Source of the DNA: a virus
Taxonomy: Duplodnaviria; Caudoviricetes
Strand: one strand, 5' to 3'
DNA length: 63,999 nt
IMG/VR virus record: IMGVR_UViG_3300037882_001089
Coordinates: 1 to 63,999 of that record
Position numbers and translations under genes: made by a program
Shown here: in pieces, positions 167 through 58,839 of the stretch
Layout: each line of letters opens with the position of its first letter
Position numbering within the stretch: position 1 is the first letter of the stretch
The notes under the pieces: model-generated
The model's database searches: none
Told to the model about the DNA's origin: nothing
Seen by the model: only the letters and a program-made list of their open reading frames with translations

Positions 167-302
167 CACCTAACGGTTTCTGGCTTTGCGAAGGCAAGGG
201 ATTAGAAGCACTAAACTTTAAAATTAGCACAAATGATTGATAGAGATACAAATGTTGAAATAACCGATGAAGCCCTTGCTTTTGCAAAACCAGTGTTAGG
301 CG
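167..302 (+). mobile_element. attC-like recombination hairpin A
   Basis: CACCTAAC-ggttt-CTGGcTTTGCgAAgGCAAGGG ... CCCTTGCtTTtGCAAAaCCAG-t-GTTAGGCG: imperfect inverted repeat with TAAC/GTTA ends and an asymmetric spacer. Confidence 0.85.
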
Positions 303-1111
303 AAGGGGCGGTTATTGGATGGTGGTCTGGCGGTATTACTTCGGCTGTTGCTTGTCGTTTAGCGATTGAGAAATATCCGAATGTAAGATTAGTTTATATT
401 GAAACAGGAAGCCACCACCCCGATACAATTAGATTTAAAACTGATTGTGAAAAATGGTATGGACAAGAAATTGAAACCATACAAAATAAGAAGTATGAAG
501 ACCACTTAGACGTTGTTTTATCAACTCGCTATGTAAATGGTGCAGGAGGTGCAAGATGCACAAAGGAACTTAAAAAAAATGTTCGTTTTGACTTTGAGAA
601 ATCAACTAAAATAGCTGCACAAGTTTGGGGCTATGAATTTGAAGCAAGTGAAATAAACAGAGCAATTAGAACGCAAGAACAATATGCCTATACAAATCCG
701 CTATTCCCTTTGATTGAAAACAAGCTATCAAAGAATGAATGTGCAGGGATTTTAGCAGGTGCAGGAATTGAAATACCAACTATGTATAAACTTGGTTACA
801 ATAACAACAACTGCATTGGATGTGTAAAAGGAGGTGCAGGATATTGGAATAAAATAAGGGTTGATTTTCCCGAAATATTTAAGCAAATGGCAGAAGCCGA
901 ACGAGAAGTTGGTGCAAGTTGCTTAAAGAATAAAGAAGGAAAAATTTATTTAGATGAATTAGACCCGAAAGCAGGAAACCCAACCGATTTAGTAACTGGT
1001 GAATGTGGCATATTTTGTCAAGTTGAATTTGCTCATATTATGTCAAAACGAACAAATGATATTTTAGAAGGCAAAGTTTCAATTTACGATGAACGTAGCC
1101 CTTTCGCCTAA
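233..1111 (+). CDS. PAPS-reductase/PP-loop family protein with Cys cluster (cassette gene)
   Basis: WWSGGITS PP-loop, RCTKELKK, NNNCIGCVKGG and ECGIFC motifs; the stop codon lies inside GCCTAAC. Confidence 0.75.
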   Translation: MIDRDTNVEITDEALAFAKPVLGEGAVIGWWSGGITSAVACRLAIEKYPNVRLVYIETGSHHPDTIRFKTDCEKWYGQEIETIQNKKYEDHLDVVLSTRYVNGAGGARCTKELKKNVRFDFEKSTKIAAQVWGYEFEASEINRAIRTQEQYAYTNPLFPLIENKLSKNECAGILAGAGIEIPTMYKLGYNNNNCIGCVKGGAGYWNKIRVDFPEIFKQMAEAEREVGASCLKNKEGKIYLDELDPKAGNPTDLVTGECGIFCQVEFAHIMSKRTNDILEGKVSIYDERSPFA

Positions 1112-11127: not shown

Positions 11128-12024
11128 ATGAGTCAAAAAGCGAAAAGATACAATAAAGGGAAAATACGATATGAGTTAATATCCACAATAGCATTACAAG
11201 AATTAGCAAAGGTTTATACTTTAGGAGCGCATAAATATTCTGTTTACAATGATGATTCAGGGAAAGTAGTTTTCGGTAAAGATATTCCTTTCGAGGAAGT
11301 TGGTAATTATCAATTAATAGAAGACGCTTCAAGTAATTGGAAATTAGGACTTAATTGGAAAGAAGCAATGGGTTCTGTAAAAAGACATATTGAGGCATGG
11401 GAATCGGGAGAAGATTTTGATGAATTAGGAACTTTACATTTAGGTAATGCTATGTGGGGATTAGCTACGTTAATAGATTTCTACAAAACTTACCCACAAG
11501 GAGATGACAGACCACATAACTACTTAAAAGAAGTAAAAATAGGATTAGATATTGATGAGGTTATTTGTGATTGGACAGGTGCTTGGTGTGAAAAGTTTGG
11601 CTATGATATTCCTACTAACTGGAATTTCAGTTATGACAATAAAGAGCATTTCGATAGTTTTACAGAGGACGAATTGAATGAATTTTACTTGAATATTCCA
11701 CCAAAGATTAAAGCAGAAGATTTGCCATTTGAACCTCATTGCTACATTACAAGTAGAAGTGTTCCCGAAGAACTAACTAAAAATTGGTTAATGAAACACG
11801 GATTTCCCACTACTCCTGTTTACTCTATTGGATTTGGAGTTTCTAAGGTTGAAGTTGCTTTAAAATCAGGAATAGACTTATTTGTGGACGATAGATTTGA
11901 AAACTTCGTAGAATTAAACAATAATGGTATTTGTTGTTTTCTATTCGATGCTCCACACAATCAAAGATATAATGTTGGATTTAAACGCATTAAAACTCTT
12001 AATGAACTTGTCCAAAAATACTAA
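11128..12024 (+). CDS. dATP/dGTP diphosphohydrolase (DUF5664-like) fused to a HAD 5'-nucleotidase-like domain
   Basis: RYNKGKIRYELI...GAHKY...NWKLG...KRHIEAWESGED...HLGNA, then IGLDIDEV...FVDDRFEN...APHN. Confidence 0.75.
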   Translation: MSQKAKRYNKGKIRYELISTIALQELAKVYTLGAHKYSVYNDDSGKVVFGKDIPFEEVGNYQLIEDASSNWKLGLNWKEAMGSVKRHIEAWESGEDFDELGTLHLGNAMWGLATLIDFYKTYPQGDDRPHNYLKEVKIGLDIDEVICDWTGAWCEKFGYDIPTNWNFSYDNKEHFDSFTEDELNEFYLNIPPKIKAEDLPFEPHCYITSRSVPEELTKNWLMKHGFPTTPVYSIGFGVSKVEVALKSGIDLFVDDRFENFVELNNNGICCFLFDAPHNQRYNVGFKRIKTLNELVQKY

Positions 12025-32330: not shown

Positions 32331-33062
32331 TTATGATTGTTTTTGCGTTAAATTAACTTCTTGTTGTGCTGAGGCTTCTGTTACTTGTGCTTCTCTTAAT
32401 GCTAATCCAGCATAACTACATACTTTCACTATAAATTTCTCATAAAGGGAAATATGTAAATCTACGTGTTGTAAATCAGTAGCCGAAGCATTAAACATTG
32501 GATTACCACCGACATTTACATAAGTCCATTTCGGAGATTTAGGTTTTCTCAAATAAAGTAACTCTACGTAATAACCACTTGGATTATCGGGATAAACTTT
32601 AAAGTCATCTTCTATTCTATATCCTATTGGGAAGTCTAAAGTAGGAGGATTAACATTTGAATTAATAGTTTTATTCAAATCAGTTTTAAGCATTAATTCA
32701 ACATCAACTCTTTTTCCCGAAGATGTATGAACTAATGATGTGCTTATTGCTCTATATAAATCAGTTCCAGTATAACTCCAAAGTTTAGTAGTATTATTGT
32801 AAGTAAAATTTGATGGTGTAGAAAATTGAGAATATAAATCTATTTGCTCCTCACGTATTTTTTTTAAATCAGCATATTGGGAGTTTGTAAGATGATTGTT
32901 CTTTTTGATAGAATCTCTCGCGTCCAAATAAAAAAGCTCCTCAAAAATAGACATCTGAGCCAATTGAGCATAGGAATTAAATTCTTCGGGGCTTAAATAT
33001 CCATAGTTGTTCTTAGCTAATAAAAACAATACAGTATTTCGGCACTCATTAATGTTTATCAT
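32331..33062 (-). CDS. tail ring/adaptor protein
   Basis: KNNYGYLSPEEFN.YAQLAQ...YLRKPKSPKWTY. Confidence 0.55.
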   Translation of the reverse strand: MININECRNTVLFLLAKNNYGYLSPEEFNSYAQLAQMSIFEELFYLDARDSIKKNNHLTNSQYADLKKIREEQIDLYSQFSTPSNFTYNNTTKLWSYTGTDLYRAISTSLVHTSSGKRVDVELMLKTDLNKTINSNVNPPTLDFPIGYRIEDDFKVYPDNPSGYYVELLYLRKPKSPKWTYVNVGGNPMFNASATDLQHVDLHISLYEKFIVKVCSYAGLALREAQVTEASAQQEVNLTQKQS

Positions 33063-33079
33063 AAGTACTTAATTTACAA

Positions 33080-33096
33080 CAAAGATAAAAAATAAC
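33080..33096 (-). promoter_or_regulatory. promoter for the tail operon (partial copy of the late motif)
   Basis: CAAAGATAAAAAATAAC on + reads TATCTTTG (-7 element) on -. Confidence 0.55.
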
Positions 33097-33126
33097 AACT
33101 AAAAATTCACTTTATATAAAATATAT

Positions 33127-33156
33127 TTTGTAGTTAAATATTTATTACTATATTTG
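33127..33156 (+). promoter_or_regulatory. Bacteroidota promoter of the tRNA operon
   Basis: TTTG at 33127-33130 and TATATTTG at 33149-33156; ATG follows 4 nt later (leaderless-type start). Confidence 0.75.
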
Positions 33157-33160
33157 CTCT

Positions 33161-33232
33161 ATGAATACTAAGAAATTACATACTCTACGTCCTGAGCAAC
33201 CGAAATTATATTTGGGAGGAATTGGCGTATAA
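33161..33232 (+). CDS. attenuator leader peptide MNTKKLHTLRPEQPKLYLGGIGV
   Basis: Short ORF between promoter and terminator; codons 7-14 are CAT ACT CTA CGT CCT GAG CAA CCG. Confidence 0.75.
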   Translation: MNTKKLHTLRPEQPKLYLGGIGV

Positions 33233-33255
33233 AGTATTTTATAATATAAAAACGT

Positions 33256-33283
33256 AAACCTCTCAGAAATGGGAGGTTTTTTT
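33256..33283 (+). terminator. attenuator terminator before the tRNAs
   Basis: AAACCTCTCA-GAAA-TGGGAGGTTTTTTT; its left arm can instead pair with TTTGGGAGG at 33211-33219. Confidence 0.85.
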
Positions 33284-33287
33284 ATTT

Positions 33288-33364
33288 CTAGTTACTAGGG
33301 CAGATGGATGAACCCGCCTCACTTGGAATGAGGAGATTCGCTGATTCGATTTCAGCTAACTAGA
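33288..33364 (+). tRNA. tRNA-Pro(TGG)
   Basis: CTAGTTA/TAACTAG acceptor stem, CCTCA-CTTGGAA-TGAGG anticodon arm, GCTGA-TTCGATT-TCAGC T arm. Confidence 0.85.
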
Positions 33365-33424
33365 CGAGCAGACTGTTACTAATTCATAGGACGTGGTGTA
33401 TAATACGAACGTAGAATTAGATAT

Positions 33425-33496
33425 TAGAGTATCGTATAACGGTTATTACATCTGACTTTGACTCAGATAATGGAAGTTCGATTCTTTCTACTCTAA
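33425..33496 (+). tRNA. tRNA-Gln(TTG)
   Basis: TAGAGTA/TACTCTA, TCTGA-CTTTGAC-TCAGA, GGAAG-TTCGATT-CTTTC. Confidence 0.88.
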
Positions 33497-33498
33497 CT

Positions 33499-33573
33499 GT
33501 GTTGTTAGCATAATTGGAATAATGTGCCTAACTGTGAATTAGGAGGATAGGGTTCGAGTCCCTGCAACACCCA
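33499..33573 (+). tRNA. tRNA-His(GTG)
   Basis: GTGTTG/CAACAC, CCTAA-CTGTGAA-TTAGG, AGGG-TTCGAGT-CCCT, ends CCA. Confidence 0.85.
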
Positions 33574-33576
33574 AAT

Positions 33577-33650
33577 GCCTCGTTACGCTAAATGGAAGTG
33601 CGGTCACACTTAGAATGTGATGGTTGTAGATTCGACTTCTACACGAGGTA
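33577..33650 (+). tRNA. tRNA-Leu(TAG) with short variable loop
   Basis: GCCTCGT/ACGAGGT, TCACA-CTTAGAA-TGTGA, 5-nt variable loop, GTAGA-TTCGACT-TCTAC. Confidence 0.82.
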
Positions 33651-33656
33651 CTAAAT

Positions 33657-33728
33657 TTTCTTATAGTTTAATGGATAAAACATCAGATTACGACTCTGAT
33701 AATCTCCGTTCGAGTCGGGGTAAGAAAA
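33657..33728 (+). tRNA. tRNA-Arg(ACG)
   Basis: TTTCTTA/TAAGAAA, TCAGA-TTACGAC-TCTGA, CTCCG-TTCGAGT-CGGGG. Confidence 0.88.
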
Positions 33729-33730
33729 CT

Positions 33731-33764
33731 AAAAAAGCCTACCAAAACTAATTGGTAGGCTTTT
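33731..33764. terminator. bidirectional terminator
   Basis: AAAAAAGCCTACCAA-aacta-a-TTGGTAGGCTTTT between convergent units. Confidence 0.85.
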
Positions 33765-33782
33765 AAATTTATTATTTAGTTT

Positions 33783-34802
33783 TTAATTCAAACTATTTGC
33801 TAAATACTCGTAGAAACTTCTACCATCTCCCGTTTGAAGATACTTACAAATAACATCAATCTCATTGCTATTTCGGTCAACTTCTATTAAAAGTTCTTTG
33901 TTAGCGTTGTAGAATCGATAGTTTTTGTAAATCAACAATCCTCTTGAAATAGCTGATTTAGCAATTCCTTTTACTTTAGTATCGGGATTCTCGCAAAGTT
34001 CAATGTATTCTTTAGGGTTTGAATCCGCATACAAGAACATTTCTTCCTCAATTTGGTCAATTCCCCACGCTTCTACATAACTCGGACAAACTAAACTTGC
34101 AATAGCTCTATTAATAGTATTTCCTACTGAATCTACTAACATATTAGCTTTGTTTTTTAGTTTTTTATCCGCAACAAATTTTCTTGAAGATTCTGTTGGG
34201 TCATATTCTTTAAAAATAATCCCATTATGAGGATGTATCGTTAGGAATTTTTGCAATACAACATCATTTGCCCCAACTTTTAACATCCCATTTTTAAAGA
34301 TAATATGCTTTACTAATACAGACCCTAATTCTTTACTTTGATTTTCAACAAAGAAAGACGGTTGATTTGAAGCAAATCTCAAAGTATGAACAGTTTTTCT
34401 TGCTTTATTAGTATATTGCAAGTTCATGTGTTCTGAATGTTGATGAGCAATAGAATATGAGATTGGTTTTGAGCCATCGCATAATACATATTGTCTGTCT
34501 TTCATTTCCCAATTTTTAAACTCAGGAATATCATCATCAATATCTTGTTCTAATCTATGTTGTGGTATTTGTTGTACAATAGGTTTTACAAGTTGTTGAG
34601 TTTGTTTAGATAGAGCTTCTTCTATAAGACGTTGCACTTCCGATAACGATACAGTTGGCTCTTTATCTTTAGGAGTTTCGATAGTTTCATCTACTACTTC
34701 TGTATTTTTAGGATTAGCTTTTTCTTGCTCTGCAAGAGCTTTTGCTTCTCTTTTTTCTCTGTGCATCTTAGCTAAAGGATGCTCTTTTTCTACTTCTGCC
34801 AT
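33783..34802 (-). CDS. conserved hypothetical protein downstream of the capsid gene
   Basis: LRFASNQPSFF...LQKFLTIHPHN...EYD. Confidence 0.65.
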   Translation of the reverse strand: MAEVEKEHPLAKMHREKREAKALAEQEKANPKNTEVVDETIETPKDKEPTVSLSEVQRLIEEALSKQTQQLVKPIVQQIPQHRLEQDIDDDIPEFKNWEMKDRQYVLCDGSKPISYSIAHQHSEHMNLQYTNKARKTVHTLRFASNQPSFFVENQSKELGSVLVKHIIFKNGMLKVGANDVVLQKFLTIHPHNGIIFKEYDPTESSRKFVADKKLKNKANMLVDSVGNTINRAIASLVCPSYVEAWGIDQIEEEMFLYADSNPKEYIELCENPDTKVKGIAKSAISRGLLIYKNYRFYNANKELLIEVDRNSNEIDVICKYLQTGDGRSFYEYLANSLN

Positions 34803-53181: not shown

Positions 53182-53242
53182 TACCTTTTTAATAAGGATA
53201 ATTTTTACATTTGTGATACAAATTAATTTAATTAAATATTTT

Positions 53243-54832
53243 ATGGATAATTCTATTATTAGGGAGATTATTTCTGATGAGTATATGAAAAATAGATTTC
53301 TTTCTGCACTTGAAAAAGCTGAGAAAGTTGTAGGAGATACAGTTGGTTTTAGGGGAGGGTTTAATGTTATTGAAAAGTTTGGTGGAATGCCTGACTTAAC
53401 AAAAGATGGTTGGTCGTGCTTAAAAGAGCTTTATTTTGATGACCCCGTTGAAGCACTTGCTTTAGAGATTGTAAAAGAAGCTACCAAGAAAACGTTTGAA
53501 AATGTAGGAGATAATACTTCATCGACTACAATATTAGTTTACTCATTTTTTAAAAACTCCTTACTTGCATTAAAAAACGGAAAGTCATCTATTGATATTC
53601 AAAGAGAGTTAGAAGAATCAGTAAACAAAATTGTTAATTATATAGATGAAATTTCAATTCCTGTTACAGATAAACTACTTTATGATGTAGCAAGAACTTC
53701 CGCTAATGACGACCATAATATTGCGAAAATAGTTTCGGAGGCTTTTGAAAAAGCTGGAGAGTTTGGTATTGTTTCCCATAAAAGAAGTATGACTGATGAA
53801 ACATTTATTGAACACGTAGAAGGTAATCCTATTGAAAGCGGATATACTCATGATTCATTTATTAATGTTCCCGAAACTCAAAGTGTTATTTTTGATAATC
53901 CATTAGTTTTGGTATCAATGATTAACTTCCAAACTGCTAACGAGATTATCCCTTTCTTGGAATACGCAAGTAAAGAAGCAAAACCACTTGTAATTATTTC
54001 AGAAATGAGCCACGATATTAAATCATTAATAGTTACCAACGTACAAAATCATAATTACCCATTCTGTATTGTTAAACCTCCATACTTAGGGAAGAAAGGT
54101 CGTGAAACAATGTTAGATTTGGCATTAATTTTAGAGTGTCAATTATTAGAGGGCATTTCTCGTGTAAACTACGAAGGAAAAGAAGAATTATACTTAGGTT
54201 CTTGTCAAAGAATGGAAGTTGGGAAAAAATATTCTACCATAATTCCTAACTCAAAAGACAACGAAAAAGTATTAGGTAAAATTGCTGAACTTAACTCACA
54301 AATCAAACATCTTAAAAAAGATTTTGAGAAAAACTACTTACGTGAAAGAATAGCCAAGTTATCAGGAGGTATTTCTACTATTATGGTAGGAGGGGTAACC
54401 CCAAGTGAAACAGAAGAAAGATTAGCTCGTGTAGATGATGCGGTTTGTGCTGTTCGTTCCGCAAAAGAAGAAGGGGTTGTTGCGGGTGGAGGAACTGCTT
54501 TAGTAAGTGCATTAGATTTGAAGTTAGACGAAATTACAAGAAAATCTATTTCCGCTCCATATTTGAAAATTCTTTCTAACGCTCACATAGACGTATCAAT
54601 TCCTTTTTGGACTCATTTAAGAGATGCTTTAAAAGGTAGAAAGAGTAAGGAGTTTTACGCAGAACAATATCCTATGGGATATAACGTTAAAACTTATGAA
54701 GTAGTAAACTTATTAGATTCAGGAATAGTAGATACCGCAAAAGGAGTAAAAAACTCTTTAATCAATGCTGTTTCCGCTTCAAATAATCTACTAAGAACAA
54801 ATAATTGTATAACCTTTAAAAGACATAACTAA
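53243..54832 (+). CDS. groL: phage chaperonin GroEL
   Basis: TKDG, RERIAKLSGGI, RVDDAVCAVRSAKEEGVVAGGG; TACATTTG promoter element at 53206-53213. Confidence 0.93.
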   Translation: MDNSIIREIISDEYMKNRFLSALEKAEKVVGDTVGFRGGFNVIEKFGGMPDLTKDGWSCLKELYFDDPVEALALEIVKEATKKTFENVGDNTSSTTILVYSFFKNSLLALKNGKSSIDIQRELEESVNKIVNYIDEISIPVTDKLLYDVARTSANDDHNIAKIVSEAFEKAGEFGIVSHKRSMTDETFIEHVEGNPIESGYTHDSFINVPETQSVIFDNPLVLVSMINFQTANEIIPFLEYASKEAKPLVIISEMSHDIKSLIVTNVQNHNYPFCIVKPPYLGKKGRETMLDLALILECQLLEGISRVNYEGKEELYLGSCQRMEVGKKYSTIIPNSKDNEKVLGKIAELNSQIKHLKKDFEKNYLRERIAKLSGGISTIMVGGVTPSETEERLARVDDAVCAVRSAKEEGVVAGGGTALVSALDLKLDEITRKSISAPYLKILSNAHIDVSIPFWTHLRDALKGRKSKEFYAEQYPMGYNVKTYEVVNLLDSGIVDTAKGVKNSLINAVSASNNLLRTNNCITFKRHN

Positions 54833-58298: not shown

Positions 58299-58645
58299 TA
58301 CTTATTTTTAACTTTTAATAAAAACTTCTCCAACTCATCTATTCTAATCTCCAAATTAGCAATCTTATAGTTGTCAAGAGTCGTACTCATTTTAACTTGG
58401 CTTTGCATCTTTAGTTTTGACTTTAACTCATTAATCCTGTCCTTAATCATTATCTCTATAACAACCAATGAAGTATTAAGCATTACGCCATTTTCGTGAA
58501 CAGTTCTATAATCATACTGAACAGATTTGATACCTCCGCATTTAGCACAAGCACCTAAACTATCTACTCCACTACCTTTACAATTACAAACATTCCACAT
58601 AATAAAACATTTTAGAGAAGGATGAAGGACTCGAACCCTCATCAT
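58298..58645 (-). CDS. hypothetical protein with CxxCxG motifs
   Basis: CNCKGSG...CAKCGG. Confidence 0.5.
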   Translation of the reverse strand: MMRVRVLHPSLKCFIMWNVCNCKGSGVDSLGACAKCGGIKSVQYDYRTVHENGVMLNTSLVVIEIMIKDRINELKSKLKMQSQVKMSTTLDNYKIANLEIRIDELEKFLLKVKNK

Positions 58646-58839
58646 AGGATAAAACTCCTATATTCTAACCAAGCGGGTTCATACGAACCTCCGAACTAAT
58701 CCCTCTGCCAATCTAACTCCCGAATCATCCCAAACCAACCAAAACTGAGTACACGAAAGAAAGACGACAATCTTAATTAATGTCCGTTATTAAACGCAAT
58801 CCTTGTCATATTGCCCGAAATAACAATCATTACCAAAAC

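Follow-up and report, generated by a model that had tools for sequence, protein, structure and literature searches.

The phage record IMGVR_UViG_3300037882_001089 of IMG/VR (63,999 bp, about 30% G+C, 85% complete according to CheckV; called the window in what follows) carries five clustered tRNA genes behind a short open reading frame (ORF) and an intrinsic terminator. We propose that this region is a ribosome-mediated (leader-peptide) transcription attenuator which would couple transcription of the phage tRNA array to the speed of decoding, and judging from the sequence comparisons presented here we give this reading a probability of about 80%. The attenuator is best read as a product feedback on the tRNA supply. 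A first-pass annotation of the window had already described a promoter, a near-leaderless ORF of 23 codons, a terminator and five tRNAs and had seen in them the logic of attenuation, with leader codons matched to the downstream tRNAs. Each of these elements is indeed present, with small corrections (Table 1), and a comparison of 24 units strongly supports the attenuation logic in silico. All our evidence is of this kind, apart from RNA contigs of infections with the Cellulophaga phage phi38:1.

The same architecture was found in 23 further units, which makes 24 in total, with leaders of 20-36 codons. Units are present in the named phages Gundel_1 (Tenacibaculum), phi38:1 (plus Calle_1) and phi17:2 (Cellulophaga) and Panino (Maribacter) and on the IMG/VR loci L006, L022, L025, L030, L056, L103, L143, L182, L197 and L198. 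They were collected by pattern scans of IMG/VR, by blastn against named phages, from annotated regions and by a search with a neighbouring protein. The first pattern scan covered 54 loci, six of which had units (L022, L023, which is a duplicate, L025, L030, L056 and L058), and the second covered 116 loci with 117 pattern matches and gave two (L103 and L143). False hits were thus frequent in these scans. Neither a hairpin nor a tRNA follows the recurrent small ORFs MKTKIISITSLF, MKTNYYQPYDLSIPKRDLGKNLAQSC and MKSYNKISISVIT, which were dropped, and the pattern match on L199 belongs to a gene of 252 amino acids and is not a leader.

Across the 24 units the leader codons largely mirror the adjacent array. 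For codons 5-16, 229 of 288 codons are cognate to a tRNA of the unit's own array, as compared with 54/288 in the +1 frame and 52/288 in the +2 frame. When the arrays were permuted among the leaders the mean was 98.6 (sd 18.8) and the maximum 184, and none of 100,000 permutations reached 229 (p<=1e-5). The first-pass annotation had suggested examining whether the codons of the leader and the tRNAs behind it vary together from phage to phage, and by this count they do.

The leaders can be sorted into three main classes, with some mixed forms besides, and in each the leader fits its array. Class A arrays hold tRNAs for Pro, Glu, Gln, His, Leu(TAG), Leu(TAA) and Arg(ACG), and their leaders have cores such as RLHLEQLEQP, RLHQELEQP and LLHQEPLEQLRLP, the core of the window being LHTLRPEQP. 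Class B arrays, with Ala, Lys, Ile, Gly, Met, Asp, Thr, Val, Arg(TCT) and Met/Ile, stand behind the cores TGIAIIGRTKDK, KTGITVIDKTKG and MNIATDIRTKGV, and class C arrays, with Tyr, Ser(TGA), Ser(GCT), Asn, Trp, Phe and Cys, behind NTFNSFWSYSNC and similar cores. In 18 units the core codons falling into the class's own set amount to 65/84, 35/36 and 72/84, class by class. The match is also seen at the level of isoacceptors. Of the seven class A leaders six have an Arg core codon, which is CGN, and their arrays carry tRNA-Arg(ACG); in class B the Arg core codon is AGA and tRNA-Arg(TCT) is present in two of three arrays. Among relatives the order of the residues is shuffled while the amino-acid composition is kept, and we therefore conclude that selection acts on the codon content and not on the peptide.

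The mixed forms show the same correspondence in rearranged arrays. The array of L143 (Leu, Leu, Ser, Phe, Cys, Ser, Tyr) is preceded by a leader with the core NLYCLLSFSSLL, and the array of L006 (Tyr, Leu, Ser, Ser, Leu) by one with the core SLYLSLSLSLSS. The latter is the key control, as it was found via a neighbouring protein and not by the leader pattern, and its codons are cognate at 12 of 12 positions. A partial match is found for the L182 array (Ser, Gln, Cys, Val, Tyr). Gundel_1 holds two units. The leader MKTKLYSYSCFSSWFKNRAG stands ahead of Tyr, Trp, Phe, Ser, Cys and Ser, some of these tRNAs being detected only by Infernal or by relaxed ARAGORN, and the leader MKTNNLHIQQNNLPVFLEGFLYM ahead of Pro, Gln, a tRNA with the anticodon CAT, Asn and Leu, with an inserted HNH gene. 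This second array includes a tRNA-Asn, and its leader has four Asn codons.

The terminator is found in all 22 units that were folded, and the full leader of the window folds into it (z = -2.84). In the eight class A sequences its helix is 93.2% paired, with both sides changed in 5 of 11 pairs; the covariation score was reached by none of 500 shuffles, slid registers fall to 28-77% paired, and RNAalifold independently calls the helix. Upstream, the 5' strand of the putative antiterminator (segment 2, 33211-33219) pairs at nine of nine positions with 33259-33267, just as the first-pass annotation had claimed, and this is the minimum free energy (MFE) pairing once the transcript ends before the terminator 3' arm. 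For the window the antiterminator duplex has -10.2 kcal/mol as compared with -4.8 +/- 1.9 kcal/mol for 500 shuffles of the ORF (p=0.008), and the same comparison with 500 shuffled ORFs gave p<=0.05 in 11 of 18 units (Fisher 1.7e-11).

Antiterminator and terminator co-vary across the units. Segment 2 varies along with the terminator 3' arm, being GGGAGG in the window, GGAAGGA in the b unit and GCAGGA in the a unit of Gundel_1, and in the class C unit of phi17:2 it reads ACAGGAUC, again in step with its terminator 3' arm. From sequence to sequence the antiterminator register is displaced by one base in our alignment A1, which stands in the way of a column-wise count, and an energy-based permutation was therefore used. 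Each ORF paired with its own terminator 5' arm gives a total of -198.8 kcal/mol, whereas permuted arms give -154.6 +/- 8.3 kcal/mol (0/20,000). The stop codon lies 18-28 nucleotides (nt) ahead of the terminator in 17 of 18 units.

For the dynamics of the switch the ribosome was modelled as a crude mask on the transcripts of 22 units, which were cut before the terminator 3' arm (segment 4) or left at full length. With the mask on codons 5-16 of cut transcripts the antiterminator was formed at 235 of 264 positions (22/22 units), and the pairing was lost once the mask passed the last cognate codons and covered segment 2. In terms of the model this is the geometry of a leader-peptide attenuator, where a stall in the core would lead to read-through and smooth passage to termination. 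Masked folding at full length (antiterminator at 33 of 274 cognate and 9 of 240 non-cognate positions) was not relied on, nor was a masked folding of a single unit with a slightly longer transcript which had suggested switching.

We envisage the mechanism as follows. A promoter of the Bacteroidota type would start the transcript with the A of the ATG or a neighbouring base, and a ribosome would load on the 5' AUG and run into the core (codons 6-14), made up of codons for the amino acids of the downstream tRNAs. When decoding is fast, the ribosome would reach segment 2 or the stop codon before RNA polymerase has completed the terminator; the terminator 5' arm (segment 3) would then pair with segment 4 and transcription would stop in the U-run ahead of tRNA-Pro. 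When charged tRNA is scarce for any of the core codons, decoding would be slow and the ribosome would stall in the core with segment 2 left free, which would pair with segment 3 as the antiterminator, block the terminator and let the polymerase enter the array. The new tRNAs would speed up translation of the leader and shut the unit again, a negative product feedback on decoding capacity. We consider it quite probable that flavobacterial phages keep their whole tRNA complement under such closed-loop control, at least three leaders partitioning the code among themselves as multi-codon tests of decoding.

The window by itself gives suggestive, moderate evidence beyond chance, and the weight of the argument comes from the relatives. 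Among its leader codons 5-16, 8 of 12 specify an amino acid served by the array, the other frames giving 3/12 and 0/12. Stretches of eight codons with at least six codons starting with C (CNN) and covering all five amino acids of the array occur 9 times among 127,956 in the six frames of the record; for a single ORF of 23 codons the chance of such a cluster is about 1e-3, with the pattern having been noticed post hoc.

The promoter boxes of the window (Table 1) resemble TTG/TAnnTTTG, which we take to be the Bacteroidota consensus and on which our calling the promoter Bacteroidota-type is based; a generic sigma-70 scan did not list this promoter. A TAnnTTTG box with the same spacing of 4 nt is also present in the class A and C units of Panino, phi17:2 and phi38:1, in the class C unit of L197 and in L006, all found without the promoter as bait. 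Exceptions to this spacing are the class B leaders and the class C leader of L198, which have a 5' untranslated region. From the fixed 4-nt distance to the box we infer that transcription starts at the ATG, and thus the position of the -7 box predicts a transcript that is apparently leaderless or nearly so. Only 8 nt separate the terminator stem from tRNA-Pro, which leaves no space for a separate promoter of the array.

In RNA libraries from infections with phi38:1, one contig covers the class C leader, terminator and array. In another contig the class A leader is joined to tRNA-Pro with 34 nt skipped, which is most of the terminator hairpin; reverse transcriptase skips at stable stems. These contigs are a weak hint that read-through RNA exists, and they show neither ends nor levels and may stem from DNA carry-over, which counts among the reservations listed next. 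The runs X6 and X7 cover part of the neighbouring structural gene only, and in X2 the class A hairpin is uncovered, so that these runs are not evidence.

Several further points weigh against our interpretation. Translation of the ORF, the transcription start, the stalling and the regulated read-through are all things we infer. The first-pass annotation had equated leader codons 7-14 with exactly the five amino acids of the array; the codons are as described and six of them are the only ones of the leader starting with C, but for ACT (Thr) and GAG (Glu) in the core the array provides no tRNA, and the same holds for the Lys codons flanking this stretch. Three further Leu codons of the window ORF (TTA, TTA and TTG) are not read by tRNA-Leu(UAG), and on the codon level the match across the whole ORF is just 6/22. 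The units are related by descent and their counts are not independent events; because of this shared ancestry the chi-square p of 5e-51 for the class-by-class counts in 18 units overstates independence. About half of the units were found by a pattern which fixes the promoter and the start, though not the core codons. Codons 5-16 match the array at only 4 of 12 positions in L182 and at just 2 of 12 in L030, and the arrays on the fetched loci L110 and L113 are without such a leader. L030 (minus strand) has a full class C leader and terminator followed, at about 220-420 nt past the leader ATG, by only tRNA-Phe and a tRNA fragment, and it looks like a decayed array with a natural orphan leader.

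The folding also supplies points on this side. The antiterminator does not outperform shuffled sequence in 7 of the 18 units. In 16 of 22 units the cut transcript adopts the antiterminator fold even with no ribosome on it, and for this reason the untranslated state may be ON, unlike in trp. With the mask on the stop codon the terminator 5' arm is still paired to the ORF in 12 of 22 units, and consequently the model does not give a clean OFF state here. In equilibrium folds of the full leader the terminator persists at nearly every mask position, which means that the switch must be kinetic. The putative protector of segment 2 is a weak pairing of 5 bp (33200-33204 with 33211-33215) in the full-length MFE structure, and RNAalifold does not recover this hairpin, which is too poorly conserved.

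If the attenuator is granted, its purpose may still be seen differently. It could have been selected as an inducible counter-defence, with the array silent until anticodon nucleases of the host or other tRNA-targeting immunity deplete the cognate host tRNAs and then providing replacements for them, as the first-pass annotation had proposed on the basis of a restriction to CNN codons. Phage tRNAs that neutralise tRNA-targeting defences are known, and the sensor logic would respond to tRNA cleavage just as proposed; should the untranslated state be ON, as the folds of 16/22 units suggest, a global block of translation would induce the arrays as well. CNN does not, however, hold as an organising principle or as a specificity: most class A relatives add tRNA-Glu and tRNA-Leu(TAA) along with GAA/GAG and TTA codons in the leader, and the two other leader classes cover codons starting with A, G or T. 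Nor did our analysis link any defence or anti-defence gene to the unit, whose flanks encode virion proteins, and three leader classes spanning nearly all amino acids fit general supply better than the specificity of one nuclease. A general supply-demand feedback explains the data equally well as a counter-defence purpose, and it is the more economical reading because the three classes cover most of the code; induction triggered by a defence would be a special case of this loop. That counter-defence was what the attenuator was selected for we regard as unlikely.

Two other readings dispense with regulation by the leader altogether. The frame-specific match (229/288 against 54/288 and 52/288) speaks against regarding the hairpin as a constitutive leaky terminator, an insulator or a processing signal of a mobile tRNA cassette whose ORF is untranslated or irrelevant and owes its codons to ancestry and composition. 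The unit does sit like a cassette on the opposite strand within a block of virion genes, no tRNA is found near the homologue of the adjacent virion gene in 14 of 15 loci, translation of the ORF is a prediction only and the L030 leader persists without its array. Yet the match follows the content of the array through the rearrangements in Gundel_1, L143 and L006, CGN and AGA Arg codons track the isoacceptor present, and ORF length, stop-to-terminator distance and the co-varying antiterminator are conserved though the order of the peptide is shuffled, which makes this reading very improbable in our judgement. Least credible of all seems to us that the leaders encode functional micropeptides, for instance the Cys/Ser/Asn-rich ones of class C, and that the terminator merely ends their mRNA. 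Class C peptides are Cys-rich and several leaders carry a hypothetical-protein annotation in GenBank; against a peptide function, it is the composition that is conserved and not the order of the residues (compare RLHLEQLEQP, LHTLRPEQP and LLHQEPLEQLRLP), each of three unrelated compositions corresponds to the array next to it, the antiterminator strand dictates the C-terminal residues (GGGAGG giving Gly-Gly or Gly-Arg), and past the terminator the tRNAs have no promoter of their own.

Table 1. Features of the window, with the parts of the proposed attenuator listed first.
Feature	Position	Strand	Basis and remarks
-33-like promoter element TTTG	33127-33130	+	sequence; 18 nt upstream of the -7 box
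-7 promoter box TATATTTG (TAnnTTTG type)	33149-33156	+	sequence; 4 nt from the ATG
Leader ORF, 23 sense codons + TAA (MNTKKLHTLRPEQPKLYLGGIGV)	ATG 33161 to TAA 33230-33232	+	ORF call; homologues in 23 units
Putative regulatory core, codons 6-14: TTA CAT ACT CTA CGT CCT GAG CAA CCG	33176-33202	+	codon-array match
Segment 1 (CCGAA), putative weak protector of segment 2	33200-33204	+	pairs with 33211-33215 in full-length MFE structure
Segment 2, putative antiterminator 5' strand UUUGGGAGG	33211-33219	+	near copy of terminator 3' arm
Intrinsic terminator hairpin, 10 bp	33256-33279	+	-12.6 kcal/mol; segment 3 33256-33265, GAAA loop 33266-33269, segment 4 33270-33279
U-run (TTTTTTTATTT)	33277-33287	+	sequence; abuts position 1 of tRNA-Pro
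tRNA-Pro (TGG)	33288-33365	+	ARAGORN; Infernal 36.5 bits at 33289-33363
Pro-to-Gln spacer, 59 nt	33366-33424	+	conserved with Gundel_1
tRNA-Gln (TTG)	33425-33497	+	ARAGORN; Infernal 62 bits
tRNA-His (GTG)	33498-33572	+	ARAGORN; Infernal 48.3 bits
tRNA-Leu (TAG), short, without long variable arm	33577-33651	+	ARAGORN; Infernal 51.4 bits
tRNA-Arg (ACG)	33657-33729	+	ARAGORN; Infernal 59.4 bits
Bidirectional terminator shared by the tRNA unit and the convergent gene for 339 amino acids	33733-33764	.	13-bp stem, T-runs on both strands
PAPS-reductase-domain protein	233-1111	+	Pfam
dATP/dGTP diphosphohydrolase N-domain protein	11128-12024	+	Pfam
Cpn60/GroEL-like chaperonin	53213-54832	+	Pfam

The tRNA unit lies on the plus strand between minus-strand virion genes, one for 243 amino acids ending at 33062 and one for 339 amino acids starting at 34802, and the ORFs near it have PHROG matches to virion proteins, to a portal and to large structural proteins. 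Genes farther away in the window code for a tyrosine integrase, DnaB, a GroEL-like chaperonin and domains of nucleotide metabolism. In blastn against named phages Gundel_1 comes closest to the tRNA region, with matches at the tRNA level only, and from this match we assign the window to a phage of the kind that infects marine Flavobacteriia. Of 15 fetched loci that have a homologue of the virion gene beside the unit, 14 have no tRNA nearby, and we therefore conclude that the cassette is not syntenic. Only L006 has an array, which is an independent unit.

Within the array, tRNA-Pro was not listed in the Rfam run on the whole window at gathering score. The tRNA with the anticodon UAG is just 75 nt long and lacks the long variable arm that bacterial tRNA-Leu usually has, so that its Leu identity is given by the anticodon only; several relatives share the short form, and the one in L103 has a long arm. 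The spacer between tRNA-Pro and tRNA-Gln lies within a 74.4% blastn match to Gundel_1 (33315-33439 of the window). Here and in its counterpart there (locus L001, 2552-2611) it measures 59-60 nt, and L025 has a 58-nt spacer ahead of tRNA-Gln. Neither ARAGORN nor Rfam finds a tRNA in the spacer, which might perhaps be a processing signal or a small RNA. A sixth tRNA is isolated far from the array (58616-58705, minus strand; Ser-GCT according to ARAGORN, Infernal 36.5 bits); two TAAATTTG boxes are found upstream of it, yet no comparable leader ORF or terminator.

Some observations concern the arrangement of the units in other phages. The HNH endonuclease gene of Gundel_1 (L001, 1985-2491) is situated between a class-A-like terminator and tRNA-Pro, its annotated end overlapping the tRNA, and read-through would here also express the nuclease. 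In L103 and L198 the class A and class C (and class B) arrays can be convergent on opposite strands with their own leader each, and since each convergent array carries its own leader the arrays behave as separate cassettes. Directly 5' of the class B leader in two unrelated phages, phi38:1 (L193, 1263-1409) and Panino (L190, 2388-2537), there is a gene with its own TAnnTTTG promoter for a conserved hydrophobic protein of 48-49 amino acids (beginning with MITFLVGVLAGAAGF and MILAFLAGSVVGAAVF).

Phage tRNA arrays, such as those of T4, T5 and the mycobacteriophages, are clusters that supplement or replace host tRNAs, serving codon-usage compensation or counter-defence. We know of no phage tRNA array with a leader-peptide attenuator mirroring the codons of the array, and full-text literature searches found no description of leader-peptide control of tRNA genes. 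In its text on tRNAs, supplements aside, the RNA-seq paper on phi38:1 makes no mention of a regulation of phage tRNAs (PMC5335546), and the papers on Gundel_1/Calle_1 (PMC8776804) and Panino (PMC11590407) only count tRNAs, again with supplements set apart.

If closed-loop control by the leaders is real, the phage would measure for each codon class whether the infected cell still translates, and only those arrays would be transcribed that are needed, be it on host shut-off, with a mismatched tRNA pool or under tRNA-cleaving immunity. It would then be the first case of an attenuator that senses the very tRNA whose synthesis it regulates. Transcription of tRNA genes is usually thought to be controlled at the promoter, by growth rate and the stringent response, and a translation-coupled attenuator would be a new regulatory circuit which would provide a mechanism for the dosing of phage tRNAs. 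It bears on the question of why phages carry tRNAs, whether for codon compensation, against host tRNA decay or as counter-defence, and would explain the short hypothetical proteins beside tRNA arrays in cultured marine phages. The leaders would offer natural modular sensors for the availability of defined tRNA sets. The proposal is testable in existing pairs of phage and host, namely phi38:1 or phi17:2 with Cellulophaga, Gundel_1 with Tenacibaculum and Panino with Maribacter.

Functionally, leader-peptide attenuation of tRNA genes joins the known attenuators, among which we have not found a tRNA-gene target described. With the trp, his, thr, leu, pheA and ilv attenuators of Enterobacteria the phage units share a short leader ORF rich in regulatory codons, an intrinsic terminator ahead of the first regulated gene and an antiterminator which shares a strand with the terminator and is located within or just past the ORF, and the position of the leading ribosome is predicted to decide the fold as it does there. 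In contrast to these classical attenuators, the element is phage-borne and would regulate tRNAs, so that the operon would itself supply the tRNA which, once charged, is sensed. Five to nine amino acids are mixed in a leader, one to four times each, in place of a run of a single residue, the mRNA of classes A and C is apparently leaderless, the protector pairing of segments 1 and 2 is weak and the untranslated state may be one of read-through.

The phage leader also differs in scoring below the gathering score of every Rfam leader family, the best being Phe_leader with 26.6 bits against 55, which covers the terminator part only (33221-33285); none of the other leader families approached its cut-off. 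No T-box riboswitch figures among the 33 Rfam matches listed for 32900-33900 with E up to 10. Attenuation of the phenylalanyl-tRNA synthetase operon pheST of E. coli by the pheM leader senses charged tRNA. As in pheST, attenuation would be applied here to the translation apparatus and not to biosynthesis; pheST concerns a synthetase, one amino acid and a bacterial chromosome, whereas the phage units concern tRNA genes with many amino acids per leader. T-box riboswitches likewise read the status of tRNA by codon-anticodon recognition in choosing between terminator and antiterminator. The T-box, with its specifier loop and conserved T-box sequence, binds uncharged tRNA directly and needs no ribosome for this, and it controls genes for synthetases, transporters and biosynthesis, whereas in the phage units the reader would be the translating ribosome and the genes under control those of the tRNAs.

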